Source: a phage
Length of the DNA: 44,039 nt
Assembly (NCBI GenBank): GCA_030821775.1
Contig: GCA_030821775.1_4700.1
Reading direction: 5' to 3' (one strand)
The position numbers and the translations under genes were made by a program. The notes below the pieces were generated by a model. The model saw nothing but the letters and a program-made list of their open reading frames with translations. It searched no databases and was not told the DNA's origin. This document shows positions 1,315 through 40,205 of this stretch, in pieces (position 1 is the first letter of the stretch; every line of letters starts with the position of its first letter).

Positions 1315-1332
1315 CTATAGTGTCCCCTAAAT
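1315..1332 (-). promoter_or_regulatory. SP6-type phage promoter driving the capsid gene
   Basis: Plus strand CTATAGTGTCCCCTAAAT is the reverse complement of ATTTAGGGGACACTATAG, one mismatch from the SP6 consensus, between scaffold and capsid genes. Confidence 0.75.
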
Positions 1333-1336
1333 AGGG

Positions 1337-2254
1337 TTACAGGCCTTTAGCCATGCCAGCGCGACGGCGAGCATCCAGACGAGCCTGTGCCTCAGCCATA
1401 CCTTTACGGTCACTACCGAAGCGCTCACCCAGCTTGGAAATCTCACGAATGTACTGGTCACGGCTTAACGGGGAGTTATCGCCACCAGACGGCGCTGCCT
1501 GAGACGGCTCGATGAGGTTAGGCTTATCGTCGCCCTGTGCTGCCTTACGGCGACCTTCCAGTTCACGCACTGCGTACTGCTGTAGGTACTGGTTGCCAGA
1601 TTCCATGACAGCATTGAAGGCAGTCAGTTCGTCATCAGACAAGGTTTCAAGCGCCCACTCCTCAAGACGTGCCCATCCATCTTCCCCGCCGACTTCCTTA
1701 GAAATGTCAGTGAAGCGCTGGGCATTAGCTGCTCCCGCCTCTTTAGCTGCATTGGCTTCTTTCAGGAAGAATGCCTCGTTCTGTGCCTTGAGGCCAGAAA
1801 GGTAAGCATCTACTGCAAACTTGCCAAAGGCATCATACAGTTTCTGCTTGGTTTCATCGGACAGTTCAAACTTGCCATCTTTGGCATAGAGTTCCTTGGC
1901 TACCTGATTGGCATCAATGCCTTTCTCTTTAAGGCTATCAGTTACATCCTGCGGGATTTCTATTGTTACTTCATGTTCTCCGAAGAAGTATTGCACTTCC
2001 TCAGTGTCTGTCTTGGTGTCATCTGGCTTAGATTCACCATTCTCTCCGCCATTGTTTCCTTCTTCTGAAGGCTGTCCAGAATCTCCTCCTCTGGTGTCTT
2101 CAGTACGCTGTGCACCAGCATTGTCATCTTGTACATCAGCACCAGTGTCAGTAGAAACATCAGTAGTAGCATCAGTTGTTACCTCCTCAGTTGCTGCTAC
2201 GCTTGGCTCAGCAGTAGGGTGCGTAGTAGTTGGTTCATTGAATGAAAAGCTCAT
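1337..2254 (-). CDS. Capsid assembly (scaffolding) protein
   Basis: 305-aa acidic ORF between portal and capsid, start overlapping the portal stop (TAATG); size and position match T7 gp9. Confidence 0.7.
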   Translation of the reverse strand: MSFSFNEPTTTHPTAEPSVAATEEVTTDATTDVSTDTGADVQDDNAGAQRTEDTRGGDSGQPSEEGNNGGENGESKPDDTKTDTEEVQYFFGEHEVTIEIPQDVTDSLKEKGIDANQVAKELYAKDGKFELSDETKQKLYDAFGKFAVDAYLSGLKAQNEAFFLKEANAAKEAGAANAQRFTDISKEVGGEDGWARLEEWALETLSDDELTAFNAVMESGNQYLQQYAVRELEGRRKAAQGDDKPNLIEPSQAAPSGGDNSPLSRDQYIREISKLGERFGSDRKGMAEAQARLDARRRAGMAKGL

Positions 2255-3804: not shown

Positions 3805-3805
3805 A

Positions 3806-5243: not shown

Positions 5244-6162
5244 GTCTTAGTTCTGAAACTTTAGGAAGGCGAAGAACCCCTTTACTAGACTCTTGTAATG
5301 CCTTAACAGCAAAGATTCTACCAATGACATTCATCTCACCACCATTTTTAATATCATGATACATCTGTGCTGCATCCTCATGGGACCATCCACGCCCCAG
5401 CATGGCCTTAACAGACTTACCACCTTTCCATTTAAAGATTAAATTAGCTACCTTACCTTTATACTTACCCTTTCCTTCCTCCCACCCAATGCAGGTGAGG
5501 TCGTAAGATACCATACGCACGATCTTCGTTTGACGATAGCCCTTGTGCCCACTTTCATACTCCACATCAAGTTTGAATACAGCACCCTCTCGGCCTGCAT
5601 CTATTTGCTCTTGAGCAAACGCTTCAACTTCTCGCTCATTATGGCAAGGGGTAATAGGAAGGATAGCGTTGTACCCGCTAAGATGAGAGCCGATGCGACG
5701 ATGTAAAGCATCGTAACGTTTGAGATAAGAAACATCAGTGAATCCATCATGGAATGCCTTAATGGTTAGCATATCGAAGAAGTCGATATACAGGTTGTCT
5801 TTAATCTGCTGGCCTATGAAATCAAGTGGCTCGGTGCGGTTAGGGTTCACAACCCCAGAGATTGCCTCAAGGTAGATATCAACGGCCATAGACTGAAGCT
5901 CACCAAGATAAACGCCAACCGGAAAGGTAGCAAAGGTTTGTTCGAGGCCTTCAGTGTTTGCCAGTTTCTTACCAGTGCGACCAAAAATGCCAACGACACC
6001 ATCAGCGCGAACAACAACAGCAGAAAAGATACCATCTCGTTTCACCTGTGCATAACATGGAAAAGTAAGTTTCTTCTCAGGTACTTCACCGCGATGCTTC
6101 ACCAGCATGAATGGGTGGTTGCGGTGATCTTCGGGAAGGCCTAGGAATTGGAAGATGTTCAT
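5215..6162 (-). CDS. ATP-dependent DNA ligase
   Basis: 315-aa ORF with the nucleotidyltransferase KxDG motif (VKRDG) and strong SD GAAGGAGG. Confidence 0.8.
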   Translation of the reverse strand: MNIFQFLGLPEDHRNHPFMLVKHRGEVPEKKLTFPCYAQVKRDGIFSAVVVRADGVVGIFGRTGKKLANTEGLEQTFATFPVGVYLGELQSMAVDIYLEAISGVVNPNRTEPLDFIGQQIKDNLYIDFFDMLTIKAFHDGFTDVSYLKRYDALHRRIGSHLSGYNAILPITPCHNEREVEAFAQEQIDAGREGAVFKLDVEYESGHKGYRQTKIVRMVSYDLTCIGWEEGKGKYKGKVANLIFKWKGGKSVKAMLGRGWSHEDAAQMYHDIKNGGEMNVIGRIFAVKALQESSKGVLRLPKVSELRHDKEVPDVY

Positions 6163-6350
6163 TTCACCTCCTTCATCACACCTTTGACTATTGCCTCTTT
6201 AAAGTGCGCTAAGTTAGAACCATAGGCACTTAAATACCACGTTGCACCTCCATCGTTAGAGGTCAATACAAAACCGCGAGGACTTACTTTATATAAGTTA
6301 CCGAAGTACCCTCTATACAGTTTACCTTCCATATCAAATATCCTCATCAA
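6159..6350 (-). CDS. Hypothetical protein
   Basis: 63-aa ORF whose end is translationally coupled to the ligase start. Confidence 0.35.
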   Translation of the reverse strand: MMRIFDMEGKLYRGYFGNLYKVSPRGFVLTSNDGGATWYLSAYGSNLAHFKEAIVKGVMKEVK

Positions 6351-6804
6351 TACATTCGTGACGATGCTTCTGGAATAACTCTTTGTAGTAGTCTGCTTTC
6401 TTCAGATCTTCTTCAGTGTTGAATTTCTTACCTGCACGCAGACGATACTTCAAAGCGTTACCCATGCAATACCCAGCGAATTGCTTCTCTGTCATGCTAC
6501 GGGCAATGATAGTGATTGCTTCTACACCTTCGAAGAACTCGTAGTGTTTAGGCTTAGTAACCATATTGTTGTCCAACATGTTGGACTCTTCACCTTGCAA
6601 TGGGTTAACAACTTTGAAATAAGGTGCATACCATTCTCGTTTCTCAACACCATCTAACATGATAGAGTTATAATTAAGTTCCGCATGAGTCACTTTGAAC
6701 ACTCCATCTGGTTTCTTGTTTAAACTTGCACAAAGGCTATTCCAGTTGGCGTCTCGGTAAGCTGCACGGCGTACTACGTATTCTCCAATATTGATCTTTG
6801 ACAT
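6334..6804 (-). CDS. Conserved phage hypothetical protein
   Basis: Track ORF 6334..6819; the start is more likely the ATG at 6804, which has a GGAGG SD. No recognisable catalytic motif. Confidence 0.5.
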   Translation of the reverse strand: MSKINIGEYVVRRAAYRDANWNSLCASLNKKPDGVFKVTHAELNYNSIMLDGVEKREWYAPYFKVVNPLQGEESNMLDNNMVTKPKHYEFFEGVEAITIIARSMTEKQFAGYCMGNALKYRLRAGKKFNTEEDLKKADYYKELFQKHRHECIDEDI

Positions 6805-8285: not shown

Positions 8286-9301
8286 AATTCCTTATCGCCT
8301 CCCCACAAGATAGGGTTCTTATCGGCTCGCCATATGTCACCTTTAAACCTTGCCATGTGAGCTAGGCGACCACATTCAAGCATCAGGTCAAAGGCTTTGC
8401 CAACCAGATAACCACCTCGGTAGTTCTTAATCTTAACTTGTCCATGTCCGAACTTAGCCTTGTAAGCACCAAGCACTGCCATGTACAACTCTTTCTCTGT
8501 CTTACAACCCTTGAGAAGATCATAGGCATACTTAGCACCACGTCCAGGTATGCCAGCGTAGTTATCAATATCATCACCGATAATCATCTGTGCATAGTGG
8601 AACATGAGGCCAGCACCTTTTAGGTCTTTGACTTGACCATTAGCCTTACGGCGTAACTCAAGCCAACCCATAGGCTCTACCCACTTCTTCTCTTGACCCG
8701 GCTGAAGGTGCCAACCGGGTACAATCATCAAATCCTTATCCAAGGAAACGATGCAAGTATCAGAGAATGCTTTATGCTCTGGACTACCGATAGGGAATTC
8801 GTTACCTGTATCTTGCTGGAAGCGGCGGTGGCTGTCCCATTGTGCAATACTCATGAGGTCATCTGCTTCTTCTCCATCTGCCAAGATTGCACCATGAACC
8901 TCTAAAAGATGCTCTCGCAATTCATAGAAGAATGGAGGTTTCTCGGTCTTACGTTGACCCTTATAAGGTTTGGTGAAGGCTAGGCGAACACGGAAGTTAG
9001 CTTCTGATTTCGTCATGAATAACTTAGCTGCATCACACTCTGCTGCATACACCCAAGAGTTGAGCAATGAGTTCACACGGTCACACGCTTGCTTACACTC
9101 AGGTGTATCTTTGATTGATGGGACTTGCCCTGACTTAACACGAGTTGTGGCTCGTACATAAGTCATGTCACTGATAGTATACCCGACGATGTAGGATAAC
9201 ATGTCAGCGTCTATTAAAGCAATTCGATTACCTTCAGTTGGCCACAGGATGAAATTATTGTCTTCCGACACTGTAGCTCCGAAGTAGAAGTTTGGTCGCA
9301 T
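8270..9301 (-). CDS. 5'-3' exonuclease (FEN / PIN-domain family)
   Basis: Contains IALIDADMLSY and GEEADDLMS acidic motifs typical of 5' nucleases. Track ORF extends to 9358, but the ATG at 9301 has an AAGGAG SD. Confidence 0.75.
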   Translation of the reverse strand: MRPNFYFGATVSEDNNFILWPTEGNRIALIDADMLSYIVGYTISDMTYVRATTRVKSGQVPSIKDTPECKQACDRVNSLLNSWVYAAECDAAKLFMTKSEANFRVRLAFTKPYKGQRKTEKPPFFYELREHLLEVHGAILADGEEADDLMSIAQWDSHRRFQQDTGNEFPIGSPEHKAFSDTCIVSLDKDLMIVPGWHLQPGQEKKWVEPMGWLELRRKANGQVKDLKGAGLMFHYAQMIIGDDIDNYAGIPGRGAKYAYDLLKGCKTEKELYMAVLGAYKAKFGHGQVKIKNYRGGYLVGKAFDLMLECGRLAHMARFKGDIWRADKNPILWGGDKELWQSS

Positions 9302-9551: not shown

Positions 9552-9989
9552 TTATTCGACGTGACTCCACGCCTTGCGACTTCTAACCTTGTTAATCAAA
9601 TCTTTAGAGACACCTAGATTTTCTGCTAATGTCTTTGCAGATAGACTACAAGAACGTATGTACTTAACCTTATCAACATCTAACTTCTGGCTAGACCTTT
9701 TGGTTCTAATAGAAACATCAATCATGTTCTGGCTACGAGAACCCCAGCTTAAGTGATCAGGGTTACAGTACATCTTATTGTCGCAAGAATGAAGTACATC
9801 TTTTAAATCAGACTTGCCATGAAACACTTCACAGCTAACTCGGTGTACTGTTTCATTTCTACCTCCACCTGTAGCTATGTTTCCATAGCCATGAGAGCCA
9901 ACAGACTTCTGCCATATCCAGCACCCGTTACTGTCAACTCCCACGTTATCCTTGATCTTCTCTATGAGTGCATCGCGGCTTAGTCTCAT
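9552..9989 (-). CDS. HNH homing endonuclease
   Basis: 145-aa ORF with the canonical HNH_3-type pattern (GCWIW...GYG...HR...C.N..C.NPDHL). Confidence 0.8.
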   Translation of the reverse strand: MRLSRDALIEKIKDNVGVDSNGCWIWQKSVGSHGYGNIATGGGRNETVHRVSCEVFHGKSDLKDVLHSCDNKMYCNPDHLSWGSRSQNMIDVSIRTKRSSQKLDVDKVKYIRSCSLSAKTLAENLGVSKDLINKVRSRKAWSHVE

Positions 9990-10456: not shown

Positions 10457-10472
10457 GTCCAACGCGTTGGAC
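10457..10472. repeat. Conserved palindrome, copy P1 (GTCCAACGCGTTGGAC)
   Basis: Perfect inverted repeat, member of the 8-copy TGTCCAAC-NN-GTTGGACA family; lies between the stop of gene 10473..10691 and the promoter at 10424. Confidence 0.8.
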
Positions 10473-12223: not shown

Positions 12224-14797
12224 TTAGTGAGTCTCTTTCCAGCTTGCGCCAATCTTATATTCACCTGCCATCGGACAGCGCATCTTAAGATACTGACCAG
12301 CCCAAGTCATGGCGTCGGCAATGATATGCCCTGCACGGTGATAACGACGCTGGCAATGCAATACACCAGCATCAGCATCAACGCTAACGAGATTTGCAGC
12401 AGACCACATACGTCCCTCAGAATCCACATGAACACGTTTCTCCTCTGCATCGAACACTGCTTTCACAGCAGCCTTCTCTGTTTCAAATCCTTCTAAGGTG
12501 AAAGGTAGGTCATAGTTAAGATACAAGACCTCCTCTTCAGGGACTTCCATCTGTATTTCATCGTGCACGTTAGCTACACCACAAGGGTTTCCCATAGCAT
12601 CCAAGGCTACACCCTCCTTGCGCATCACTGCAAATGCCTTGACCAGTGCGTATTTCATACACAAAGAGCCAGTCATCTGGAGCAATACGTTAAGCATAGT
12701 GTGTTCTTTAAGTTCACCACCGGACATACGGATGCGACCCCAATGCCCATCAGGTGCTTGCAGGTAGCCAAACTTGTTACCTTGTGCGATAACATTCTCG
12801 CGAAGACGTGCAAGAGACGGTAGTTCAATCTCGAATCTTGCCACAACTTCCTTCATTTCATCCTCAGTGACACCGCATACTGCTGCAAGGTTAGCTATAC
12901 CAGAGCCATAGAGGAAGGCATATATAAACGTCTTCGCCATGTCACGCTTAGGAAGACCAGCCTTCATCTGGTTATGCGTATGGATGTCACCATGAAGTAC
13001 AATCTCTTGGTATTCGGGGTCATTCATGAAGTGAGACAGTACACGCAGTTCAAGACCTGCACCATCACAACCAAGGATTAGCTTGCCTTTCCCTGCTATG
13101 AATAAATCACGTAGAGGATACAAGCCACGGGCAGGAATATTAACCACGTTGCGATGACGCATACGGAACGTAGAAGTGCCAATACTAATAGCAACAGCTG
13201 GCACACGCCACTCTCCGTCATCTTTGTCAGACGTAGGCCAACATCCATACCTCGCATAGTATTGCTGCGCATTGATTCCTAGCTCCTTATTAAATGCTAC
13301 AGGTATAAGGCCGCGACACTTTCGTACACCAGCCTGCGAGGGCCACGCCCCCTTCTGATTGAAGGCTTCAACGTCACCACGGTTGAGGATCTGACCACGA
13401 CGGGATACGAGTATGTACCATGCAGCGATACCCAAGCACCAATCAGGGACTGTTTTACCTTCACGTGTGGCTCTTTCTTGCCATAAAGTGATGGACTTCT
13501 CATTTATCTTACCACTCCACGGCTTAGGTAATACACCATGTTCATCAATGTAGGCCTGTTCTGTATCATTAAACTCAACACCTCTCCATCCGAACCCATA
13601 AAGCACTTGTTTAACAGTCTCACGGTTTCCCAAGGGAATGTCTTCAAACGTGACGGGAGAGTAAGCGCCAATGTGCTTGATGCTAGGTGTGTCATTCTTG
13701 TTACCACGGAGGTGAGGGAAGTCTTTCTTGACAGTAGCAGACCAATCTCCAGACTTAGTGGTGACAGCCCAAACCGTCTGCCGATCTCCGCGCCGTTCGG
13801 CATGGATAAAAGCCTCGCTAGACAACGTGACTCCAATTCCGTGAAGTCTACTATACTCATTTGCTTTATCAACTTGCGCCTCCTTCTCTTGAGCTTTGAA
13901 TGGTTTAGACTTGATACGCATAGGCATGTGTGGACGAAAGGCTGCGACTGTCTCGTCAATCTTGGCGTCCAGTTCTTCGCATCGCGCTAACGCCTTGTCG
14001 ATGTCCAGACGGAACCCGCGTTCGGCCTGACGGCTCATCTCCAGCGCCACAATGGACTCCATGTGGAAGGCTGTCTCAATGCCCAAGCCAGTGCGTTTAT
14101 TCACGCCACGGCGTTTGTGTTCCATCCATTCCCCGTTAAAGAGCCAGAGGAACAGGTCACGACCGATTGCCACGTCCTCACGTACACGGTGAACCATGTG
14201 GTCAGTTAGTTTAGACCAGTCCTCGTTCTCCGGTTTATAGCGGCCTATACGGATGCCGTGCGCCTCAATTGAGTGAGGGGCAACGTTACCCATACCTTTG
14301 GCGTATGCTTGCGGAGGGAGGCGTCTATCGGGGTTTAACAGGCGGCTCATCACCAGCGTGTCCATGACTCGCACAGGACACAGGTCGGCACGAAGCCTGC
14401 CCTTGCCGCGCTTCTCGGTGTAGTTAAAGCCTTTCCATATAGTAGGGAATGCTTTCTCAAAGAGAAGCCCGTCATACCCTAGGAAGTTCTGTGACACGAT
14501 AGCTTCACAGTGCTTCAGGAAGTTAACACCGTCAACCAAGTCACCGTCTTGGTGGCCTTCCCATTCCTTCATACGTTCTCTTGCTTCATGGTCACGCATC
14601 TCATATGGGTCAAAGAAGAGAAACTCCTCGGTAGTAAGCAAGTCCATGCAGCAAATGATATGCACATCTTCACGGTGTCCATATCGGATAGCATCAAGGA
14701 GGCCTTTACTTTCGGCGTCCATGACGAGGATGCGGCCTTCTGCCTCCTTCTTCCAATCAATAATCTTCATACATTGCCTCTGTTTCGTAGTAGTCAT
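12224..14797 (-). CDS. DNA polymerase (family A, T7 gp5-like)
   Basis: 857-aa ORF in the expected position after primase/helicase; true start may be the ATG at 14770 (GAGG SD). Confidence 0.85.
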   Translation of the reverse strand: MTTTKQRQCMKIIDWKKEAEGRILVMDAESKGLLDAIRYGHREDVHIICCMDLLTTEEFLFFDPYEMRDHEARERMKEWEGHQDGDLVDGVNFLKHCEAIVSQNFLGYDGLLFEKAFPTIWKGFNYTEKRGKGRLRADLCPVRVMDTLVMSRLLNPDRRLPPQAYAKGMGNVAPHSIEAHGIRIGRYKPENEDWSKLTDHMVHRVREDVAIGRDLFLWLFNGEWMEHKRRGVNKRTGLGIETAFHMESIVALEMSRQAERGFRLDIDKALARCEELDAKIDETVAAFRPHMPMRIKSKPFKAQEKEAQVDKANEYSRLHGIGVTLSSEAFIHAERRGDRQTVWAVTTKSGDWSATVKKDFPHLRGNKNDTPSIKHIGAYSPVTFEDIPLGNRETVKQVLYGFGWRGVEFNDTEQAYIDEHGVLPKPWSGKINEKSITLWQERATREGKTVPDWCLGIAAWYILVSRRGQILNRGDVEAFNQKGAWPSQAGVRKCRGLIPVAFNKELGINAQQYYARYGCWPTSDKDDGEWRVPAVAISIGTSTFRMRHRNVVNIPARGLYPLRDLFIAGKGKLILGCDGAGLELRVLSHFMNDPEYQEIVLHGDIHTHNQMKAGLPKRDMAKTFIYAFLYGSGIANLAAVCGVTEDEMKEVVARFEIELPSLARLRENVIAQGNKFGYLQAPDGHWGRIRMSGGELKEHTMLNVLLQMTGSLCMKYALVKAFAVMRKEGVALDAMGNPCGVANVHDEIQMEVPEEEVLYLNYDLPFTLEGFETEKAAVKAVFDAEEKRVHVDSEGRMWSAANLVSVDADAGVLHCQRRYHRAGHIIADAMTWAGQYLKMRCPMAGEYKIGASWKETH

Positions 14798-14894: not shown

Positions 14895-14912
14895 TGTCCA
14901 ACACGTTGGACA
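14895..14912. repeat. Conserved palindrome, copy P2 (TGTCCAACACGTTGGACA)
   Basis: Perfect 18-bp palindrome with complementary AAGG/CCTT flanks, in the gap upstream of the DNA polymerase gene. Confidence 0.8.
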
Positions 14913-15346: not shown

Positions 15347-16030
15347 TTAGATTTTCACGTAGGTTTCTTCAGTAACGATAGGGAGGTACAGTAATTCTTC
15401 ACCATTCAAGATGTGAAGACCTTTCAATCCTTGCTTAATGATAATATCTTCTATGGTTTTAGCAAAATTGGTATTAGCTACACGACGAGGTGTGCCATGC
15501 TCTGTGATTGCATGGTCAACATCATGATTCGCACAGGTACATTAGGGTGCATCATGGCTTCACCAATCTTCACCATAGCTTGTCCGGTGGATTTACCAAG
15601 AGCACGAGTGTTAAACTGTGTAACACCTAATGCAGTGCCACACAGCTTAATCATTTCACTTTGGGTCTTACCAGTGATTACATTGCGGCGCTCTTTCTTG
15701 AGTGTGGTCTTTGCTTTGCCACATGCCTCTGCTAAAGTTTGAATGCCACCACTATAGAGGTGTGCTGTAATATCACTTTCTGCATCTGGCGAGCGCACTT
15801 GTCGCAAATCTCATCATGTATGCACTTACATTGGTTGTTTACCTCTACAATCTTTTCAAGGTATTTATGTGCGTTCTTCTTGTTATAGAAAGCCTTAATA
15901 CCATTATCATATACTACATGATACAGGTTCTCACTTACATTATGCACTACACCATGACAACGATAGAGACGTGATGTTTATTGATGTTACGAACATAATC
16001 ACCTACATTCAATACTAATTTATACATAAT
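15347..16030 (-). pseudogene. Frameshift-disrupted gene, possibly a degenerate HTH-containing homing endonuclease
   Basis: Four consecutive minus-strand ORF segments in different frames (about 27 aa, 71 aa, 109 aa, 64 aa) tile this ~680-bp region; includes a Cys cluster (CKCIHDEICDKC) and an HTH-like stretch (TQSEMIKLCGTALGVTQFNTRAL). Confidence 0.4.
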
Positions 16031-18287: not shown

Positions 18288-18289
18288 AG

Positions 18290-18305
18290 CCCAACACGTT
18301 GGACA
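18290..18305. repeat. Conserved palindrome, copy P5 (imperfect)
   Basis: CCCAACACGTTGGACA, one-sided degenerate copy abutting the promoter at 18270. Confidence 0.6.
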
Positions 18306-18458: not shown

Positions 18459-18475
18459 TGTCCAACACGTTGGAC
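18459..18475. repeat. Conserved palindrome, copy P6
   Basis: TGTCCAACACGTTGGAC between the RNAP terminator and the promoter at 18433. Confidence 0.8.
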
Positions 18476-18502: not shown

Positions 18503-18532
18503 GCAAAAGAAAAGGGAGGCCGGAGCCTCCCA
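18503..18532 (-). terminator. Rho-independent terminator after the RNA polymerase gene
   Basis: Perfect 7-bp GC-rich stem GGGAGGC/GCCTCCC with a 4-nt loop (plus 18514-18531), followed on the minus strand by UUUUCUUUU, ~10 nt after the RNAP stop. Confidence 0.6.
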
Positions 18533-18542: not shown

Positions 18543-21161
18543 TTAAGCAAAACAGTAGTCGCTATCCATGATTTCGTTCAGGTCAAAGCTGCCTTGCTCT
18601 GGCACTTCGATGCCAGTATCAACCATCCAGCGGTCTTCGTGCTCATCAAGCAGTTTCTGCAAGGCGTTCCCTTCTGAGTACATGCCAACCATTTCTGATT
18701 TCAGTGCATGACGCAGCTTAGCGGTATTGTCTGCGTGAGTACCAAAGGAGTCGTGAATCACTGCAATACTCGTCACCCCTTCATCAACCAGATGACAGAC
18801 GGTCAGAATCAGGTGGCTTGCGTCATGACCATGAACGAAGTTAGGCGCTGCTGCTCCCATCATAGCGGTTTCATCCACTACATCAGTTTCAACTTGCAGA
18901 CTCATTTTGATGTCACCCATCAGGCAGGTGCGCACACGGAGCATCTCGGTCGCCATAATTTTCTGCTTCAGGATGAAGCCAGTTGGCAGTGGGTATTCCA
19001 ACCCTTCATTGCGCTTAGCTGCAAAGCGAGCCAACTTGCGAATCATCTGCATCGCCACTACCGGAGCCTTAACAACCTCAGAGATGGAAGGCCAGATGAG
19101 CGCCGTCATGTAGTTGTATGCTTTAGCCGGAGTAAGTTCACCGTTATCATCAAACGGGTGCACACGGTTCGCTGCGCGCCCTTCTGCCACCGCCATTTGT
19201 GCCTCTTTCTCTTCCAAATCGACGATATAGTCAATCACAGAATCACGGCAGGTGATGCGAGTAGAGCCGTAAGGCAGCGTCATTACTGGTTTCTTGGTCA
19301 GGCCACGGGTAATGCCTACGCTATCCCATGCGCTAGCCATAGCTCGAAGGTCAGAGCCGGAGAGGGTTAGGCTTCCGCTCGTGAAGGTCGTCCCTTCTTC
19401 GGCATCCATATAGAGCACATTTTTAGAAATGACCACCTGTGCAACCGCGCCGTAAATATCCTGCGGAGCGTCGGACGGCTTCAGGTTTACAGCTTTAGCG
19501 CCCACCTCATCGCGTAACATAGCGGAGTAATGCTGAATGCCGGAGCAAGAGCCATCTTGGTGGACTGGCAGGTGAGTTTCGAAATCGGCCTGCGTCCCTT
19601 TATCCAGTGCATCCAGATAGCGGGAGTATTCGAAGCACCAAGCAAGAAATTGGTACGGCTCATCCGCTTTAGCCCACTGTGTGAAAGTCAGCGGGTCGGC
19701 TGCAATGTCACGGCACATATCTTGGAAATCACCGTCTAACACGTTGGACTGACGTACGTCAAAGGTCTTCTTATCCCAACCCCACAGGTTAGCGCCCAGC
19801 ACGAGGAACCATTTAAGAGCTCCAGCGCTGTCAATCTTCCGCCCCTCTGTGAAGCGTAACAGAGATTTACCCAGGTCGTTAGACTGTGGGGACAGGGTGG
19901 AAGATTGAGCGTAAACACGGCTGCGGCTGTCCATCACGTAGACGAAGTAGATGGATTCAAAGGCGCTATATTTGCGAGCCTGTCCAATCATGCGAACCAC
20001 GGCGGCAGACTTGGAGCCGCGCTTTGTTTCGGCGGTGTATAGTCGCGCACACTCCCCTTTCCAGTTAATGAACGCCTGCCATTGCTCTTCTGATAGCATT
20101 TCTTTCAATTCACGACCCCGAAGATGTTGGAACTCAACCGGAACAGGGTTAGCAGGCTTGTTTTCCTTGTCAATTAGTGGCTTAAAGGACGGCACACCAT
20201 AGCCCAAATCAAGGCGGATGACGTCTTCAGCTACCGCTAAAACCTCTTTGTTAACCTGCCATTTGGTGTTTTGTAAGGCGTTAATAGCCTTGTACACCTT
20301 AGGCATTTGCTTAACAGTAAGTTTGCGAACATGCTCACGGTCGCCCTTAACCAGACGCACACGACTAGCCACCTTCTCAGTATGGAAGCCACCATTAAAC
20401 GGGGTTTTCCAAGGACGAGGAGGAACAACGCAAGGAGCATAGGCTGGGGCCAGTTGTGCTACGTGCTCTTTAAAGGCTGCAATCCATTGGCCTACAGTTT
20501 CGGAGGTTTGCAGGTAATAAATAGTTTTACCGCCAAATGAGCGCATAGCGCGAACGAACACAGGCTCACCGTTGTAGAATACGCTAGCTTCTAGTATTTC
20601 CAGCAGGGTAGTACCAATCTGCAATTGTGTATCTTTAGGCCATGCCTCCCAGCGGTCAAAGTCAGCGTCTTTAGCGGCTACAGACTTCTCAGCCACTACA
20701 GCTACATTGTGAGCGTGACGGTATGACTTGGTGCGGCTAGCCTTAAGCGATTTCTTCACTTTCTCGAAGTATTTCGCGGCGTGGCCTTCCAGCTTGCTGA
20801 AGCGCACTTGGTCTTCGATGCGCTCGGCAATGCTCATAGAAATGGCCTGCAATGTTACATCAGTGTTCAGCATATCCATAACTACCTTCATGGTAATATA
20901 GGCTGCCACCTCGTTTTCTACACACTGTAAGAAGGCTAGGGCACGAGGAGCGCGGCCTTTCTTGCCTTCGTATTCTTCTTTGTAAGCCTGAATGCCTTCA
21001 GCCATAGGCGCGATTAATTCAGACAGCAGGCGGCGATTCCATGCCGTATCTGATTCATTACCCGATGCTATTTGGCGCTGTTGGTCTGCCTCAAAGCGAC
21101 GGATCCCGCCATTAAACATTTCTTCTTCAAGCTGAAGCTGGATAGCGTGTAAGTCCTGCAT
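18543..21161 (-). CDS. Single-subunit DNA-dependent RNA polymerase, SP6-type
   Basis: 872-aa ORF with AGGAG SD; N-terminus [32 protein letters not shown]... and overall sequence match my recollection of SP6 RNAP almost residue for residue; consistent with the SP6-type promoters across the genome. Confidence 0.95.
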
Positions 21162-23610: not shown

Positions 23611-23639
23611 ATTATGCATACACTAAGATAACTTGTCAA
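23611..23639 (-). promoter_or_regulatory. Sigma70-type host promoter for early transcription
   Basis: Minus strand reads TTGACA, 17-nt spacer, CATAAT (-35 at plus 23634-23639, -10 at plus 23611-23616), ~100-140 nt upstream of the first early gene. Confidence 0.5.
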
Positions 23640-24601: not shown

Positions 24602-26314
24602 CTACTTTGCAACCCAACCTTGAGCAGATGTACCAGATTCTTTAATGTACAATGTACTACCACCAGACCCATTAATACCAGTTGCCAAAGAACCGACAGG
24701 TGCACCTACACCTAAAGTTGTAGGATTGCCATTTAGTCCATAAACAATCACCGTACTAGAACCGACTCCTTGGTTATTCTGAGGTGCTTGCGTACCATAG
24801 CAATCATTGCCAATTAGTTTAATATTGGAGCAAGAAGAAGTAACACAAATACCAAGGCTTGGCTTGTTAGGGCTTTCTCCATCTACTCCAATATTACCTT
24901 CTACTAGGATGTTGTTAGCTCCTGTGTCTATACTAATGAAGTGTCTACCTGCTTCAGCGGTAGATACTTCCTTCATATTATTAGCTTTAATCACTAGACC
25001 GCTAGCCTTGCAGTTTACATGAATACCATATTGCCCTAATTTAGAGAAGATATTACGACTAAGTATACCTTCTCCTGATAAACCAGTACCAATGAATGTA
25101 GTAGCATCAGACTCACCTAACCAAATCCCACTACCTCTTCCGTTTTCCCAAGTATTACCTTCGATGTGGTATTTTGTCCCAAAGCGTAAACCGATTAACC
25201 CTAAGCCACCAGAGCCTGTATTACCTTTTACAATTAAATTCTTACACCACCTTGCATCTACACCATAGGATACATCCCCTGTGAGGATCATAGTATTATT
25301 AGAAATTTCAATATGGTCATGCCAAATGTCACTAATATCGGTAAAAGGCCAAGATGGTGCATCAATTAGCACTGGTGCTCTTACGCCATCAAAAGTACAA
25401 CCTACAACACTACCTTGTCGAGTCCCTTGCGGTTTAGTTTGAGAGGAGACAGGTGTAACATGAACGCCTCTTGCATTAGAGTTTCTAAAGGTGCAACCAC
25501 GTACTGTCCAGTTTTTCCAGTTAAATACACGTACACCTGCAAAGAGAGCACCATCTGTAGTGCAATTCAAGATACGGATATTGTTGCCCTGTACACCATA
25601 AGCTGAGGCGTGATTTCCGATTAGTGCACCATAACCTCCAAACCCGGATTCTGGGTTTGGACCAGCATAGCAATTCTCCACCAGCATACCACTAGACTGC
25701 ACATAGTGACCAACTGTAATAAGTCCTGGGTCTAACTGTATAGCCTCTGAGAAGCTACGACTGCCTGTATTCTTAAACCCTAGGAATTTACAATCACGAA
25801 TAACTACGTTGTTCCAATCTGCTAAATCTATGGCGTGGTAGTCCACTACATTGTTAACTGTTATGCCTTCAAACTTCAAATCATTATTACTAGTAGATGC
25901 AAATACTACAAAAGGTGTATCCCCTTTAGTGTGACCATTGCCTTCATAGACACCTCCACTGACTGTTACATTACTAGCTTGCCTTTGTGATAATCTGAAT
26001 AGCGTATCTCCTGTTTCGTAGTCACGTACAAATGTTACACCTTTAGCAACCTTGAAGTGTGTATTAGCAAATATCTCAACAGTACCACTGAGTTTATATT
26101 CGCCAGCTTTAGTGACTGATACAGTACCACCGCCTAGCAATCTGACCGCATTGAATGCAGCTTGAAGGGCTTGCCTGTTGTCATTAGAAGAGGGATTAAC
26201 TCCAAAATCCGCAACATCTATTGTATCCGATAGTTTATCAGATAGCAGGCGCTCAATAGTACCTGTTAGTTTACTCTTGTACTTCACCAAGTAAGCACTT
26301 AATCTTTGAAGCAT
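24602..26314 (-). CDS. Tailspike 2: beta-helix polysaccharide depolymerase
   Basis: 570-aa ORF with AAGGAGG SD; N-terminal pectate-lyase-3-like motif (DVADFGVNP...), many Gly/Asn-rich repeat turns typical of right-handed parallel beta-helix tailspikes; terminal position as in SP6/K1-5. Confidence 0.7.
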   Translation of the reverse strand: MLQRLSAYLVKYKSKLTGTIERLLSDKLSDTIDVADFGVNPSSNDNRQALQAAFNAVRLLGGGTVSVTKAGEYKLSGTVEIFANTHFKVAKGVTFVRDYETGDTLFRLSQRQASNVTVSGGVYEGNGHTKGDTPFVVFASTSNNDLKFEGITVNNVVDYHAIDLADWNNVVIRDCKFLGFKNTGSRSFSEAIQLDPGLITVGHYVQSSGMLVENCYAGPNPESGFGGYGALIGNHASAYGVQGNNIRILNCTTDGALFAGVRVFNWKNWTVRGCTFRNSNARGVHVTPVSSQTKPQGTRQGSVVGCTFDGVRAPVLIDAPSWPFTDISDIWHDHIEISNNTMILTGDVSYGVDARWCKNLIVKGNTGSGGLGLIGLRFGTKYHIEGNTWENGRGSGIWLGESDATTFIGTGLSGEGILSRNIFSKLGQYGIHVNCKASGLVIKANNMKEVSTAEAGRHFISIDTGANNILVEGNIGVDGESPNKPSLGICVTSSCSNIKLIGNDCYGTQAPQNNQGVGSSTVIVYGLNGNPTTLGVGAPVGSLATGINGSGGSTLYIKESGTSAQGWVAK

Positions 26315-26399: not shown

Positions 26400-28298
26400 T
26401 TACTTAGGCAGGGAAGCTAGTGCTTCCTGCATACGCTTAATAGTCCGCCGCATCAACGCAGCCTCTAATATCAGTACTTCCTCGTAACGAATACCGTAGC
26501 GGGAACCTGCTGGTGTAATCAGTTTACGAGAGCCATTGGCATCTTCCTCGTATACATCATCCCAACTGTCGAAGCACAAGAAGCCATAGCGATGTGCATC
26601 TATACCGTGACGTTCGAAAGCCTCCTTAGCTCGCTGAGCGATGATGCCAAAGTGCCATCTAGCTGAGTCTACACCCTTCTCCTCAATTCGGTCCAAGTAC
26701 TGAAACTGCACAAAGTCAACTTCAGACCAAGCATCCAGTAAAGCATCTGAGATAATAAGAGGCTCTGTTTTATCCCTAGCATCTGAGACAACAGTGAATG
26801 CTGATTGAGTAAAACCGCCAGACCACACTCGATCGGCGGAACCTAATGCGTATGTACCAGTACTATTTGGGGTCATTGCATTAGCACCTAACTGCAAATA
26901 GCCTTCTCTACTGGTAGAAAGACGCACGTTACCGTTGGTGAGGGACACTGTCCGATAAGTACCATCAGAAGTAAATAGGCGAACTTGAGAAGAAGTACCC
27001 CCACCTACAGCTAATGACACAGCACCGTCCCCAAGCATTCTGTACTTATCAGCAGAAGTAAGAGCGCCAGAAGGGGGTGACATGGACTTAATCCGCCATT
27101 CGAACCTACCTGACATACTACCTATGTACTGCCCTAAGGCAGGTGCGTGCACTACGTTACTATTATTAGTGCCGTCAATAGTAGCTGCACCGGCAATAGT
27201 ACTAGCAGAACTGAGAAGGTCGTTTCTCCTGCCAGGGTGCTTTACCTCTACGAAGTTACGTGTAGAGCCGGATTCGAAAGTAATAACACCTGTAGCACTG
27301 TAGCTAGGAAATACAGACGCATAGTTGTTATTAGCTGTACCTATAAAGCGTGCAATTGTAGCAGTCTGCTTTTGTCCTAAAGAGTTAGTACCATCACATC
27401 CTGACATAAGCACATTATTTATGACGTTATCAGAACCCTCTACTGTAACACCATGAGCCTGCCCAGCATCAGAAGTTGAGTAATCTACGAGCACGTCTGA
27501 GATTAAGTTCGTACTTCCTTTGCCTGCAACAACCGCTGCATACTTAGGGTTATTAGCCATCACCCCCTTGATAAGGTTATTAGAAGGAGCTATTGGCCCT
27601 TCAGTGCCGTTGTAAGTTACATGCTGACAATCTGTCCCTATAACATTACTGACTATGTTGTAACTGGCTTTACCTTTCAACTCTACTGCTCCGAACTGAG
27701 GGTAGTTCTTAGCAATGACGTTATCTATGAGGGAGTTAACTGAGGAATCAGCAAGTACGCATCCGGCTGCCTTATTAGTAGCATAGCCGGAATAGCTACC
27801 TCGAATGCCTTTAATCATAAGTCCATCCGGTGGCGCACCATTAGGGTATGCGATTAAACTGAAACCAATACCTTTAACGTCTGAGAAGTTAACGTCACTT
27901 ACAGTAACATCACTTCCACCAGCAAGGGATACCTGCTGTCCCTGAGTTGTATCAGTCGCCTTATTACTTTCTACCGTAATATTACTTAAGCGACCTGCAC
28001 GTAGATTGTTAAATACTAGGTAGTTACCTGTACTTGAACGGTGACTTAGCACGCCACTACCCCTGCCGTCTAAGTTACAGTAATTACTATTAATACCAGA
28101 GCTAGAGAATACACCATCTGAGACTGTGACAGCTTTCTGAGAGTTTAATGAAGCAGCTATAACCTCCGTATCATCAGTAGTGGCGTCACCTGCAGCACCA
28201 AACGGCTTTGATGTTAAAACTCTCGCATCAAGGTACTCATACAAAGATTGTCCTTTATGCAAGATTCCTTCAGTATTAGGTTTGGTTAATTTAGCCAT
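26400..28298 (-). CDS. Tailspike 1: depolymerase with C-terminal intramolecular chaperone domain
   Basis: Track ORF 26400..28358 begins at TTG; the ATG at 28298 (MAKLTKP...) has an AGGAGA SD. N-terminal FGAAGDATTDDT motif, beta-helix repeats, and a C-terminal ~128-aa domain (SDARDK...GIIAQRAKEAF...) resembling the self-cleaving chaperone (peptidase S74) of endosialidase and K5 lyase tailspikes. Confidence 0.75.
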   Translation of the reverse strand: MAKLTKPNTEGILHKGQSLYEYLDARVLTSKPFGAAGDATTDDTEVIAASLNSQKAVTVSDGVFSSSGINSNYCNLDGRGSGVLSHRSSTGNYLVFNNLRAGRLSNITVESNKATDTTQGQQVSLAGGSDVTVSDVNFSDVKGIGFSLIAYPNGAPPDGLMIKGIRGSYSGYATNKAAGCVLADSSVNSLIDNVIAKNYPQFGAVELKGKASYNIVSNVIGTDCQHVTYNGTEGPIAPSNNLIKGVMANNPKYAAVVAGKGSTNLISDVLVDYSTSDAGQAHGVTVEGSDNVINNVLMSGCDGTNSLGQKQTATIARFIGTANNNYASVFPSYSATGVITFESGSTRNFVEVKHPGRRNDLLSSASTIAGAATIDGTNNSNVVHAPALGQYIGSMSGRFEWRIKSMSPPSGALTSADKYRMLGDGAVSLAVGGGTSSQVRLFTSDGTYRTVSLTNGNVRLSTSREGYLQLGANAMTPNSTGTYALGSADRVWSGGFTQSAFTVVSDARDKTEPLIISDALLDAWSEVDFVQFQYLDRIEEKGVDSARWHFGIIAQRAKEAFERHGIDAHRYGFLCFDSWDDVYEEDANGSRKLITPAGSRYGIRYEEVLILEAALMRRTIKRMQEALASLPK

Positions 28299-28382
28299 GC
28301 TATCTCCTATTACTTCCCAACCCTCCCCATGAAGATTGGCTAGTAATAGGCCGCTCAAAAGAACGGCACTATCTTATCTCTT

Positions 28383-29313: not shown

Positions 29314-29315
29314 TA

Positions 29316-37226: not shown

Positions 37227-37244
37227 TGTCCAACATGTTAGACA
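37227..37244. repeat. Conserved palindrome, copy P8, between two internal virion protein genes
   Basis: TGTCCAACATGTTAGACA (one mismatch) with complementary AAGG/CCTT flanks, in the 66-bp gap between the two large internal virion genes. Confidence 0.7.
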
Positions 37245-37259
37245 ACCTTGAGTATGACA

Positions 37260-40205
37260 CTAATTGATCTTCACTCGCCCAATCTTAGTGTTTGCAGCGA
37301 GTTTGCCAGCGGCAGGCGGGTATACCTGCATCCAGCCGTTCTTGTCGATCTTGTTGAAATGAGACTTACTGACGAATGCCTCGGACATTTCACCAGCGAA
37401 CTTAACGTACATAGAGCCATCTGCACGAGTTTCTACTTCGCTAATCTTAGGAACAGCTCCACCACTCTGTGCTAGGTTGTAGGCTTCTGCACGACGAACC
37501 AATAGGCCAGTTTGACGCTTACCTTCGGAAGATGCAGTGGCTAGCATTTCAATAAACCCATCAGTAAACCGACCAGCCTTGAACGCTTCATATGCACGAG
37601 GTGACTTCTGGATGCCACCTCTACCAAGGTTGTAGCTTAAATCCATGATACCACGCTGTACACCGGGATGCATTTTGTCAAAAGGCACAGCCCAATCACG
37701 AGTAGAAGGTACATGGCTCTTCATGTCCTGCTTGAGAAGTTTCATAGCTCGCTCTGGTGTCAGTTGAGACTGACCAGCTTTGAACGGAACTTTCTCTGAA
37801 CCAATCATGATGTAGCCATTACGCTTCTCTTCGGCAGTCAGGAAGTGACCATATCCAACCGAATGACCATGTGCATCTTTGTACGGTGTGTACACGCCAG
37901 CAACTCGATCAAAGCCAACGTTCATCTGGTTCTCTGTCTTGGCTACATAGTCGAAGAATGTCTGGTTCTTCTTCTCGTAGCCGAACTCAAAGTTAGCAGG
38001 TAGGTTCTCACCAGCAGCAAAGGCAGGAGACATAAGGAAGTCAGCAATACCACGCTTGCCTACTGTCTTAGCAGTAACGTCACCTTTCTGCATAGGCTGC
38101 GCTTGGTAGCCACCAGCACCCCACATGCGCATCTGCTGTGCTTCAAAGTTCTTCTTAGCATCATCACGCTCTTTCACTTTAGCGTCGTAATGTTCCTTGA
38201 GCAACGCTTGTCCTTTAATTTCAGACAGTGGCATTGCTGGAGTGAGAGGCGTTCTGGCAGAACCCCCACGGATTGTGAACATACCACGCTTAGAATCAAC
38301 ATCAATGTAGATGTCAGATTCATCTAAACCTCCTGAATTATCAAGCAATTCCTGCTTGTGGTTATCGATGTACTGACGTAATGCTGTAGGTACATCATTC
38401 TGGTTTACACCTATAGTGTCACCTAAACCACGAGCATCACCTTTGACCAACACACCTTGAGTGAAGAAACCTTCGGAAAGCTGCGTATACTGAGATGTCA
38501 GATAGGATTGCAAGTGACGCTTGATGGTGTCATTGTTGTGACCTGCAATCTTCATCGCACGGGCGATAGTCATTGCATCATCCATCACAAGTGCTTTACC
38601 AGTGTCGCTCATGTTATCTCCAAGAGTTAACCAGCTACCACCAGCAATATCATCAACCACACCCTCAACATCACTGGACAATTCTTTGAGAACTGAGCCT
38701 TGCAACTTCTCACCTTTTGCAACGTTCTGAGCAAACTCAATCGCCTGACCCACGTTGTATCCCATCTGTAACGCCTTGTCGTAGTTCTCCACAAAGGCGT
38801 ACTCCTTGTCGCCCATCACTGCACGGCGGGAGTCTTCTGGAATAGAGTCACGCGCCATCATGATTGTCTTGAGCGCCTCCGGCTCTGCTGTCATATCCTT
38901 AAGGTTAGCAGAAGACATTTGCATCAGTGAGTCGTAACGAGCCTTGATGTTCGGGTCTTTGATGAGTTGCTGCCCCAGCTTGGCATATCGCATGATTTCG
39001 TACTTACCACGGATAGCCTCTGCCGCCTCTCCGGTTGCTCCGGTTCGTGCAATCTCATCGTTTGCCAGCTTGGTGAACACACCAGCGATACCTTCTGCAT
39101 AGTCGTTACGGTCTTTCTCACTAATGTCTTGCAAGCCAAGAGGTGAACCAGATTGACCGCGTGCAAGCAGGTCTTGCATCTTGGCTTCCTCTGCGTTCTT
39201 CTTAGCTACCTTGTCGAACAGTGATTTGATTTCACCGTCAGACCAAGCAGTGCCTCCAGAGATTTGGTTGTGATTCTGCATGATTTGCAGCATCTCTTCT
39301 CGGTCAAGCTCTCCAGCTTCGAATGCCTGAATCGCTGCATCCTTCTTCTCGAAGAGTGCAACCTGATTCTGAGCAGCCCAGTTACGGTTAGCTTGAATCT
39401 CGGCAGTCTGTAGCTTGCCATTCCGCTGGTACAGGGACACACCGTTCTTGTCTTTCAGAGACTTCGTTGCTTCAACAAAGGTGTCATCACCAACAGCAGC
39501 ACGCTCCATAGCAATCTGAGCAATCATCTCTTCATACTCAGGCTTGGTAAGCTGCATGGTGATAGCTTCCTGCTGTAGCTGGTGTAATGCGTCATCAAGA
39601 GCACCACCAGACAGACCTTCTGTAACCATCAGGACACGAGACTGCATAGCCTGTGTGCGCTCTTGTGCTTCACGTTCCAGCTTGGCGCTCATACGGGCAG
39701 CGAAGATTTTAGGTTGCTGCTCCATGAATGCGTTAGACACAGTACGCATGGTTTCTTTGTCCCCGATAAGTCCGGGGTACTGCTGGTATACTTTCTCCTG
39801 AATCTGGTTGCGGGAGTTAACAACCATTTGCTCCCACTCTTGGTCTGTGCCAGTGAAGCGCTTTGCTGCATCCTGTAATGCGATAGATTGTCCTATCACG
39901 TCGTTCTGCAACTGCACCAGCATATGTGCACGAGCGCCACCAACAGTGGCATCATCGGACGGCATCAGACCCTGCAAGGCTCGGTCATATTGACGAACCT
40001 TGTCATCCTCTACCGCCTGATTCATGATTTCCGTGCCTACCTTGGCGAATGCACCAGCGGCGCTAAACAGGTCATCAAGGAATGCGGAGCCTGTACGCTC
40101 CAGCACTGGCTCGCTTACCTGAATAGCGGAGGTGGAAGCACCACGCGGTGCTCCCTTAGATTGTACTTGCTGCAAGCCTTGCACTGCTTGCCGTTCAATT
40201 GCCAT
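37260..40205 (-). CDS. Internal virion protein with C-terminal T4-lysozyme-like domain (gp15-like position)
   Basis: 981-aa ORF with AAGGAG SD; C-terminal region contains YKDAHGHSVGYGHFLT, closely resembling the T4 lysozyme block YKDTEGYYTIGIGHLLT. Confidence 0.75.
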   Translation of the reverse strand: MAIERQAVQGLQQVQSKGAPRGASTSAIQVSEPVLERTGSAFLDDLFSAAGAFAKVGTEIMNQAVEDDKVRQYDRALQGLMPSDDATVGGARAHMLVQLQNDVIGQSIALQDAAKRFTGTDQEWEQMVVNSRNQIQEKVYQQYPGLIGDKETMRTVSNAFMEQQPKIFAARMSAKLEREAQERTQAMQSRVLMVTEGLSGGALDDALHQLQQEAITMQLTKPEYEEMIAQIAMERAAVGDDTFVEATKSLKDKNGVSLYQRNGKLQTAEIQANRNWAAQNQVALFEKKDAAIQAFEAGELDREEMLQIMQNHNQISGGTAWSDGEIKSLFDKVAKKNAEEAKMQDLLARGQSGSPLGLQDISEKDRNDYAEGIAGVFTKLANDEIARTGATGEAAEAIRGKYEIMRYAKLGQQLIKDPNIKARYDSLMQMSSANLKDMTAEPEALKTIMMARDSIPEDSRRAVMGDKEYAFVENYDKALQMGYNVGQAIEFAQNVAKGEKLQGSVLKELSSDVEGVVDDIAGGSWLTLGDNMSDTGKALVMDDAMTIARAMKIAGHNNDTIKRHLQSYLTSQYTQLSEGFFTQGVLVKGDARGLGDTIGVNQNDVPTALRQYIDNHKQELLDNSGGLDESDIYIDVDSKRGMFTIRGGSARTPLTPAMPLSEIKGQALLKEHYDAKVKERDDAKKNFEAQQMRMWGAGGYQAQPMQKGDVTAKTVGKRGIADFLMSPAFAAGENLPANFEFGYEKKNQTFFDYVAKTENQMNVGFDRVAGVYTPYKDAHGHSVGYGHFLTAEEKRNGYIMIGSEKVPFKAGQSQLTPERAMKLLKQDMKSHVPSTRDWAVPFDKMHPGVQRGIMDLSYNLGRGGIQKSPRAYEAFKAGRFTDGFIEMLATASSEGKRQTGLLVRRAEAYNLAQSGGAVPKISEVETRADGSMYVKFAGEMSEAFVSKSHFNKIDKNGWMQVYPPAAGKLAANTKIGRVKIN
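38412..38429 (-). promoter_or_regulatory. SP6-type promoter-like sequence inside the gp15-like gene
   Basis: Plus CTATAGTGTCACCTAAAC, one mismatch at the upstream end, within the coding sequence. Confidence 0.5.

Follow-up and report, generated by a model that had tools for sequence, protein, structure and literature searches.

Described counterparts of the elements considered here are found in Salmonella phage SP6 (Zindervirus), whose genome carries 12 SP6 promoters (PMC11880802), in K1-5 and K1E (Vectrevirus), and in T7, which combines a single-subunit RNA polymerase (RNAP) with a dozen or more co-oriented 23-bp promoters, some of them intragenic. A comparable set of 12 sites, all in one orientation, is present in contig GCA_030821775.1_4700.1 of NCBI GenBank assembly GCA_030821775.1, a 44,039-nucleotide stretch of phage DNA that was analyzed at its full length and is referred to below as the window. 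With a probability of roughly 0.93, judged from the sequence, these sites (P1-P12) can be read as the promoters of an SP6-like phage of the T7 supergroup (Molineuxvirinae, Zindervirus-type). As such the set is ordinary and canonical, and represents known biology in a new SP6-like phage.

The window shares with SP6 the 21-23 bp consensus ATTTAGGTGACACTATAGAAG, the number of sites, the stop codons embedded in them, the specificity loop of the polymerase and the gene junctions that the promoters occupy: upstream of gp6, two after the RNAP gene, the 3′ end of the helicase gene, upstream of gp15, the gp15 stop, upstream of gp18, the gp22 stop, upstream of the capsid gene, inside gp35, the terL stop and upstream of the tailspike gene. 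When the position weight matrix (PWM) described below is applied to SP6, the sites recovered (2121, 6135, 6304, 8428, 12559, 13022, 14303, 17445, 22430, 29410, 37790 and 39927) correspond one-to-one to P1-P12, and all 12 are collinear with sites in SP6, BP12B and PST_H2. The window differs from SP6 in its RNAP gene (~80% nucleotide identity), in its unrelated tailspikes and in coming from an E. coli assembly. SP6 also has an extra weak site at the end of gp10, of which the window appears to retain only a decayed counterpart. This segment (15446-15468, minus strand; ATTTTGCTAAAACCATAGAAGAT) scores only 7.9 bits and looks like a remnant of the gp10-end promoter of K1-5 (9027), SP6 (9129) and BP12B (9228), in which case a promoter would have been lost.

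K1-5 and K1E, with the consensus ATTTACTGGACACTATAGAAG, have the same GACACTATAG core at the same positions in a collinear genome. They share the site-specific deviations at P1, P2 and P6; P3 is deviant in both clades, with a different base in each, and the A at -16 of P11 is common to both, whereas its G at +2 occurs only in the window. The two systems differ at -12 to -10, where C(T/C)G takes the place of GG(T/G/A), a difference matched by three substitutions in the specificity loop. The likeness to T7 extends to the tandem promoters after the RNAP gene, ahead of a gene 1.1-like open reading frame (ORF), to an early terminator past the polymerase region, to a strong post-capsid terminator and to some 5′ stem-loops. 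T7 differs in its promoter sequence, and P1, situated upstream of the polymerase gene in the window, allows positive feedback. T7 is not known to have a promoter of this kind ahead of its gene 1.

Promoter census

A preliminary description of the window had counted about 12 SP6-type sites in one orientation. All 12 are present, with plus-strand cores starting at 1315, 6860, 10424, 11703, 12166, 16134, 18270, 18433, 22168, 28383, 30032 and 38411, the last of these one base away from the position first given (38412). On the plus strand, the core pattern CTATAGTGTC(A/C/T)CCTAAAT is matched exactly at seven of the 12, with one mismatch each at 11703, 18270, 30032 and 38411 and two at 22168; shuffled window sequence yields no match to it. 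A PWM scan spanning -17 to +6 on both strands, which that description had proposed as a check, separates the 12 sites cleanly. They score 28.7-38.5 bits and all lie on the minus strand, the next-best site reaches 16.4 bits on the plus strand, and mononucleotide shuffles peak at 21.4 bits. The distribution is bimodal, and the census is therefore exactly 12, without hidden weaker members. All sites are co-directional with every gene, all long ORFs being on the minus strand; ten are placed at or near gene boundaries, and the two intragenic ones use the single frame that is open throughout.

Read on the minus strand, the sites differ from the SP6 21-mer ATTTAGGTGACACTATAGAAG by 0-3 mismatches. Their variation is focused at one position, as first described, and this position corresponds to -10 (T at six sites, G at four and A at two), where the information content is 0.4 bit versus 1.2-1.6 bits at the neighboring positions. 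GA occurs at -9/-8 in 12 of 12 sites, a pair reported, according to the title of the study, to tell SP6 from T7 promoters (Lee & Kang 1993). Hidden promoters of K1-5 or T7 type were considered for the window and rejected, as the scans gave none: the T7/T3-type promoter TAATACGACTCACTATAGGGAGA has no match there at ≤3 mismatches, and no K1-5-type site occurs, the nearest candidates being GGG variants at 2 mismatches to the K1-5 consensus. In the window, -11 is G throughout and -12 is G or T at all 12 sites, unlike the C(T/C)G of K1-5.

The 16.4-bit site noted above is a promoter-like element in antisense orientation (22640-22662, plus strand, transcription start site (TSS) 22657; AGTTAGGTTACATTATAGGAGAC) with T at -9. 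It points to the left genome end, and the same 23-mer is found in K1-5 (minus strand, TSS 1537). This element is conserved, though probably non-functional.

The cognate polymerase

The window encodes a single-subunit RNAP (18543..21161, minus strand; 872 aa) that is 89% identical to SP6 gp7, 89-90% identical to the enzymes of SP6, BP12B and PST_H2 taken together, and homologous along its entire length to T7 RNAP (E 1e-115). Both the 24-residue specificity loop and the AT-rich recognition loop are identical to those of SP6, BP12B and PST_H2. The SP6-type reading of the sites, proposed at the outset, is thus supported by the match to the SP6 consensus, by the presence of the cognate polymerase in the window and by collinear sites in these three genomes.

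Co-variation of loop and promoter was followed in 31 genomes or loci, including 26 further loci of RNAP relatives, with loop and core sites extracted separately. The SP6-type loop always occurs with ATTTA-GG(T/G/A)-GACACTATAG and the K1-5-type loop (E739D, R744S, D750E) always with ATTTA-C(T/C)G-GACACTATAG; where the loops are more divergent, the GACACTATAG core is absent and other consensus sequences are found. The window enzyme has R744, not the serine of the K1-5 type. Among SP6-like phages more broadly there are at least 6 or 7 promoter classes, each with a distinct specificity loop (L008, L018, L019, L020, L029), examples of which are ATTTGTGTTGCACTATAG, AATTAGGGGCTACTATAG, AATTAGAGACCACTATAG, AATTAGGGCGGACTATAG and GTTTAAGTTGCATTATAG.

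Overlap of promoters with gene ends

Several of the sites had been noticed to overlap the ends of genes, and this is indeed the case: stop codons lie inside or at P1, P6, P8 and P11, and P4 falls within the last 17 codons of the helicase gene. In one frame the consensus itself holds two TAG triplets, at -14..-12 and -2..+1, and in another, provided that -10 is T, a TGA at -10..-8. The third frame is the only one free of stops; it reads L-G-D-T-I-(E/G) and is used by both intragenic sites, P4 and P10. The TGA stop of gp4 is made up of -10..-8 of P1 and the TAG stop of gp22 of -14..-12 of P8, while the TAA stops of gp15 and terL occupy -18..-16 of P6 and P11, respectively, and are formed with A-17/A-16. 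The annotated ends of SP6 coding sequences coincide with the same promoter-embedded stops. Genes often end inside promoters because the genome is compact and two of the three promoter frames contain TAG or TGA. The A at -16 in P6 and P11 can be explained in the same manner, since it is the last base of the upstream TAA stop, and this dual coding accounts for part of the apparent weakness of the two sites.

The individual sites

All of the following coordinates are on the minus strand. P1 (22163..22185, TSS 22168; ATTTATGTGACACTATAAGAGAT) lies upstream of gp6 and the RNAP gene. The tandem pair that follows the RNAP gene begins with P2 (18428..18450, TSS 18433; ATTTAGGAGACACTATAGGACCA) and continues with P3 (18265..18287, TSS 18270; ATTTAGGTGACACTATTGAACAA), which is situated 32 nt upstream of gp8 and has a T at -1 that is kept in relatives. 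P4 (16129..16151, TSS 16134) reads L-G-D-T-I-E near the end of the primase/helicase gene. P5 (12161..12183, TSS 12166) is an exact consensus site in the intergenic region between the DNA polymerase (DNAP) gene and gp15, P6 (11698..11720, TSS 11703) is an AATTAGG variant at the gp15 stop, and P7 (10419..10441, TSS 10424), upstream of gp18, has a G at -10 that is kept in all SP6-type relatives. P8 (6855..6877, TSS 6860), at the gp22 stop, follows the consensus to +3 and has C for G at +4. P9 (1310..1332, TSS 1315) is located upstream of the major capsid gene, 4 nt past the stop of the scaffold gene, and P10 (38406..38428, TSS 38411; GTTTAGGTGACACTATAGGTGTA) resides 1.15 kb inside gp35, where it spans the codons G-L-G-D-T-I-G-V. 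P11 (30027..30049, TSS 30032), a AATTAGGGG variant, coincides with the stop of terL (terminase large subunit), and P12 (28378..28400, TSS 28383) precedes the first tailspike gene.

The P8 transcript is predicted to begin with a stable 5′ hairpin and the P12 transcript with a very stable one (z -5.4). That all transcripts begin in this way was rejected, since better folding than in shuffles is seen for only 3-5 of the 12 leaders. A separate feature of the leaders is a repeat, (A/C/T)TAGGT(A/T), spaced at ~9-11 nt and clustered in those of P2, P5 and P11 (18368-18406, 12129-12138 and 29971-29992, minus strand). Nine of its 23 matches fall within +5..+130 of a start site, where 0.8 would be expected, and orthologous leaders contain 12 in SP6 (1.1 expected) and 10 in K1-5 (1.3 expected).

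The site within gp35 offers an opportunity to separate promoter sequence from coding sequence. In 15 relatives that keep L-G-D-(T/A)-I-G, with pairwise third-position identities of 43-69%, L-G-D-T-I shows 97% conservation at its third-codon positions (background 67%), which ranks first among 197 five-codon windows. The rare ATA codon is invariant, unlike the neighboring Gly and Val codons, which are free to vary. This conservation of third positions argues that the element is under selection at the nucleotide level. The gp35-internal site scores 29.6 bits in the window and 11.6 bits in SP6. Past the capsid terminator, P10 likely restarts transcription for gp36-gp40. Downstream of the P10 TSS, gp35 has no in-frame start preceded by a ribosome-binding site, and production of an N-terminally truncated gp35 from P10 was therefore rejected, the AGGAGG-ATG 88 nt further on being out of frame. 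The latter begins a 49-aa ORF (38174-38323, minus strand; AGGAGG-N5-ATG) that is probably spurious, since its start is not conserved in SP6.

Number and strength of functional promoters

Could the 12 repeats be some other signal, such as recombination, replication or packaging sites? Nothing specific was found to count for such a role, which is extremely improbable given that the sites have the sequence of the SP6 promoter as defined biochemically, that the cognate polymerase gene resides in the same genome, that the sites have a single orientation and stand in front of gene blocks, and that their sequence co-varies with the specificity loop. Some considerations nevertheless weigh against the promoter reading. 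The two loop classes are also two clades, so that the co-variation is confounded with phylogeny. Readout of -12..-10 by R744, which aligns with T7 N748, can be proposed by analogy only, and the SP6 and K1E polymerases do not obey recognition rules derived from T7 (PMC11880802). Function at each individual site is a prediction, and P1 (A at +1, T at -12), P3 (T at -1) and P10 (G at -17, GGT at +1..+3) carry bases that depart from the consensus; some of these deviant sites may be very weak promoters. A smaller set, of about ten working promoters, would leave P10 and perhaps P1 as promoter-like relics retained through descent or because L-G-D-T-I-G must be encoded. Ten promoters were reportedly predicted in SP6 by Dobbins and colleagues in 2004; moreover, LGDTIG is kept in SP6 and BP12B though in both the upstream part of the element is degenerate (11.6 and 4.4 bits), some relatives have the core change GACGCTATA, and K1-5 is without a site at the P10 position. 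This smaller count is nonetheless unlikely in view of the synonymous conservation at P10, with its first rank of 197 and its invariant rare ATA. In addition, the unusual bases of P1 (T at -12, A at +1) are kept in ~20 genomes of both classes, which points to maintained function rather than decay, and the truly decayed comparator at 15446-15468 scores just 7.9 bits.

Graded strengths among the sites, as suggested in the preliminary description, are plausible from their sequences. Mismatches to the consensus range from 0 (P5, P7, P9 and P12) up to 3 (P1 and P10), and the ranking is conserved in SP6 (Spearman 0.87), PST_H2 (0.97) and BP12B (0.93). Thirteen of the 16 deviations in the window are the same base at the SP6 orthologue (permutation mean 3.8, P<1e-4). 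In a randomised library, the output of SP6 RNAP was set mainly by +1..+3, with GAA the best (PMC7429497), so that sites lacking GAA should be weaker; GAA is present at eight sites, GGA at P2 and P11, GGT at P10 and AGA at P1. The retention of T at -12 and A at +1 of P1 in ~20 genomes across both specificity classes suggests a deliberately weak feedback promoter ahead of the polymerase gene. It is possible, if somewhat doubtful, that the deviations are instead side effects of overlapping coding and shared ancestry, all 12 sites firing at broadly similar rates. The A at -16 in P6 and P11 does complete a TAA, the gp4 TGA needs the T at -10 of P1, and in SP6 an A at -12 of P8 turns the embedded TAG into TAA. 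Position -10 looks neutral as well, P9 being GGG in the window and GGT in SP6, and its base can be a Gly wobble position. Because it differs between orthologous sites, the -10 base says little about strength, and it probably matters little. Conservation among genomes that are 80-90% identical could also be partly a matter of inheritance. However, the deviations at -1 (P3), +1 (P1) and +2 (P2 and P10, and P11 in the window only) are non-coding except in P10; those at P1, P2, P3 and P10, though not that of P11, are kept in both the SP6-type and the K1-5-type clades; and +1..+3 are the positions that dominate output, with GAA best, in the library cited above (PMC7429497).

Genome layout and predicted transcription

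The window corresponds to a reverse-complemented, circularly permuted SP6-like genome, with a gene order collinear with gp1-gp48 of SP6 and a nucleotide identity of ~80-89% to the nearest deposited genomes. The terminal repeat is collapsed to a single copy (~24206-23934), and the contig break falls in the U14 tract of the capsid terminator. These positions imply that transcription runs from 24206 to 1 and then from 44039 to ~23934, and the promoters are encountered along this path in the order P1, P2 and so on to P12.

Two terminators lie where a T7-supergroup program predicts them. Directly after the RNAP gene is an intrinsic terminator (18514..18531, minus strand; GGGAGGCUCCGGCCUCCC + UUUUCUUUUG, -16.3 kcal/mol) that may mark the end of the early unit. 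After the capsid gene is a strong terminator (1..45, minus strand), consisting of a 12-bp stem at 17-45 and the U14 tract at 1-16 (-21.6 kcal/mol, z -5.6), which is the analogue, downstream of P9, of T-phi in T7. Near the left genome end, the best sigma-70-like candidate (23611..23639, minus strand) reads TTGACA-17-CATAAT and matches at 11 of 12 positions, and a second candidate (23055-23027, minus strand) at 10 of 12. The product of gp8, the gene downstream of the tandem P2/P3, weakly resembles the T7 gene 1.1 protein, and P2 and P3 therefore look like positional analogues of phi1.1A and phi1.1B of T7.

From this arrangement we infer initiation events and temporal classes, as well as the relative strengths discussed above. 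Host RNAP would start at the sigma-70-like promoters near the left end (~23640), read the early genes and the RNAP gene, and stop at the terminator at 18531-18514. Using its specificity loop and AT-rich recognition loop, the phage RNAP would then bind the 23-bp sites (-17..+6), initiate at the G of TATAG and read rightward along all genes. P1 would feed back on gp6 and the polymerase gene, P2-P8 would drive the DNA-metabolism genes, and P9 would drive the capsid gene up to the strong terminator, with P10-P12 re-initiating for the distal virion, packaging, lysis and tailspike genes. The overall scheme is the standard program of the T7 supergroup.

Elsewhere in the genome, the tailspike positions are taken by two large distal ORFs (24602-26314 and 26400-28358, minus strand; 570 and 652 aa) in which no resemblance to the tailspikes of SP6 or BP12B could be detected. 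The flanking gp45 and gp48 are conserved; such replacement is a host-range module swap typical of this phage group. Between gp18 and gp19 is a 145-aa ORF (9552-9989, minus strand) without a counterpart in SP6 or BP12B, followed by a strong terminator-like hairpin of its own (9544-9519), and this ORF looks like an inserted gene. The major capsid ORF (97-1260, minus strand; 387 aa) aligns only to residues 1-381 of the 401-aa SP6 and BP12B proteins, with a different C-terminus and a longer gap to the next gene than in SP6. The exact RNAP and capsid proteins occur a single time in public data, in an E. coli assembly with third-party annotation, and both carry the label “hypothetical protein” in the public E. 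coli record.

A recurrent hairpin

The closest described analogue of a second repeated element in the window is found in T7, which has about ten intergenic RNase III sites or stabilizing stem-loops per genome, read on the sense strand, with a sequence shared within the genome and many of them adjoining promoters or gene ends. The window contains ten loci of the palindrome GTCCAAC-RY-GTTGGAC (6571-6586, 10457-10472, 14896-14911, 16066-16081, 17476-17491, 18289-18304, 18460-18475, 19734-19749, 23651-23666 and 37228-37243), where ~0.3 matches would be expected. Four copies immediately precede a promoter: P2, P3, P7 or the best sigma-70-like candidate. The core GTCCAACGTGTTGGAC (18460..18475, minus strand) lies 9 nt upstream of P2; GTCCAACGTGTTGGGC (18289..18304, minus strand) abuts P3 at a distance of 1 nt, its outer stem pairing with the promoter ATTTAGG; and GTCCAACGCGTTGGAC (10457..10472, minus strand) is located between the gp17 stop and P7, 15 nt upstream of the latter. 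Intrinsic terminators, defined by a stable G+C-rich stem running straight into a U-rich tract, were considered for the family: three of the ten copies, after gp9, gp11 and gp35, form 12-13-bp stems (-17.6 to -19.4 kcal/mol, z ~ -5) with CUUUUAUC-like U-rich tails, and the remaining copies have stems of 6-7 bp and no U tract. Another three are intragenic, within the RNAP, helicase and gp23 genes, and all of these read S-N-x-L-D. Unlike the T7 stem-loops, those of the window have stems of only 7-13 bp, an apical helix of constrained sequence, two lineage-specific versions and three intragenic copies; they are not in Rfam.

The hairpin positions are kept even where polymerase identity is 69-80% and the promoter class is different. 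In K1-5-type phages the same positions are occupied by GTCTCAC-RY-GTGAGAC, both arms having been switched at at least five loci (in K1-5 itself, L002, at 5989-6030, 6093-6279, 8382-8425 and 14478-14656; also in L012, L014, L024, L027 and L028). The helicase-gene copy is only half switched, since an in-frame TGA would arise from a complete switch, and PST_H2 and K1-5 mix both versions. In the copy after gp11, 99.4% of cells are paired across 12 genomes and six of 13 pairs have changed on both sides, a level of covariation reached in 0 of 500 shuffles and compared with at most 0.085 in slid controls. This covariation, together with an invariant U-G pair and frequent G-U pairs, argues for a structure on the sense strand. 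A role as a duplex-DNA operator for a recognizable phage regulator was rejected for the same reasons, and because a search of the early and middle proteins gave no DNA-binding domain.

Several further propositions did not stand. The hairpin version does not track polymerase specificity, since phages of other promoter classes (L008, L018, L020 and L022) keep GTCCAAC, and an argument for strand asymmetry from GTCTAAC/GTTAGAC variants alone was dropped as inconsistent between clades. Selection at the nucleotide level is unsupported for the RNAP-gene copy (rank 565 of 879); the helicase-gene copy is in the top 3% for conservation at this level. No Rfam 15 family matches the window at the gathering threshold, hairpin included, and no precedent for the hairpin was found in the searchable literature, though papers outside that library could still describe one. 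An attenuator, a 3′-end stabilizer, and a processing or recognition site for an unknown factor are possibilities for its role.

A prophage cassette with the hairpin and phage promoters

The exact hairpin 19-mer recurs in 75 stretches of viral contigs. Among ~40 with flanks examined, ~28 are not SP6-like and share a single cassette, in which a T7-like promoter (AATACAACTCACTAATGGAGAGG), the hairpin, 12 nt, a K1-5-type promoter (ATTTACTGGACACTATAGAAGGA) identical to that of K1-5 itself, a leader, the strong ribosome-binding site AAGGAGG and a 40-aa hydrophobic ORF follow one another on one strand. Its hairpin-plus-promoter part matches the P7 module of Molineuxvirinae. A single copy of the cassette, unannotated, is carried by 632 of 5,426 complete E. 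coli genomes (~12%). It sits in a lambdoid prophage between Rz1/iss and the HNH-terminase genes, running antisense to the late operon and, in the main type, upstream of iss/bor. Representative loci are L055 (1740-2030, minus strand), L124 (5001-5291; E. coli NZ_CP025913), L125 (467-757; Shigella phage SfIV), L105 (520-660) and L056 (10520-10800). Most E. coli copies have the K1-5-type promoter; the SfIV copy, common to 22 E. coli genomes at ≥99% identity, has in the same place the SP6-type promoter ATTTAGGTGACACTTTAGAAGGA, which differs exactly at -12..-10. On two other temperate backbones the same layout is found with other promoter alleles and non-homologous small ORFs. A known toxin or defense family was rejected for the small ORFs, which have no match in PHROGs, PADLOC or Pfam. 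For the cassette, too, the searchable literature contained no precedent, although one could exist in papers outside that library.

Conceivably, several of the promoters are coupled to the hairpin as a portable module, and the prophage cassette is a trap or sensor fired by the RNAP of an infecting T7-like or SP6-like phage, a proposal offered here tentatively and with less than even odds. The outcome might be abortive infection, a decoy effect or hijacking of the polymerase, and in that case the hairpin might belong, as a working component, to the transcription units of phage polymerases and be recognized by an unknown factor. The cassette may instead be a recombination fossil.

Implications

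The practical value of this analysis is a complete predicted transcription map for an unannotated SP6-like phage of E. coli, and it indicates that the SP6-type polymerase/promoter pair circulates in E. coli phages. The stop codons built into the promoter, which account for genes that end within it, the synonymous-site selection that keeps the gp35 promoter and the site-by-site conservation of a hierarchy of promoter quality are each a modest addition to knowledge. If functional, the prophage cassette would be a very simple means by which a lysogen detects the polymerase of an invading lytic phage, and would bear on the therapeutic use of K1-5-, SP6- and T7-type phages. The hairpin family and the prophage cassette, leads worth following up on the flanks of the promoters, could matter more than the promoter set itself.

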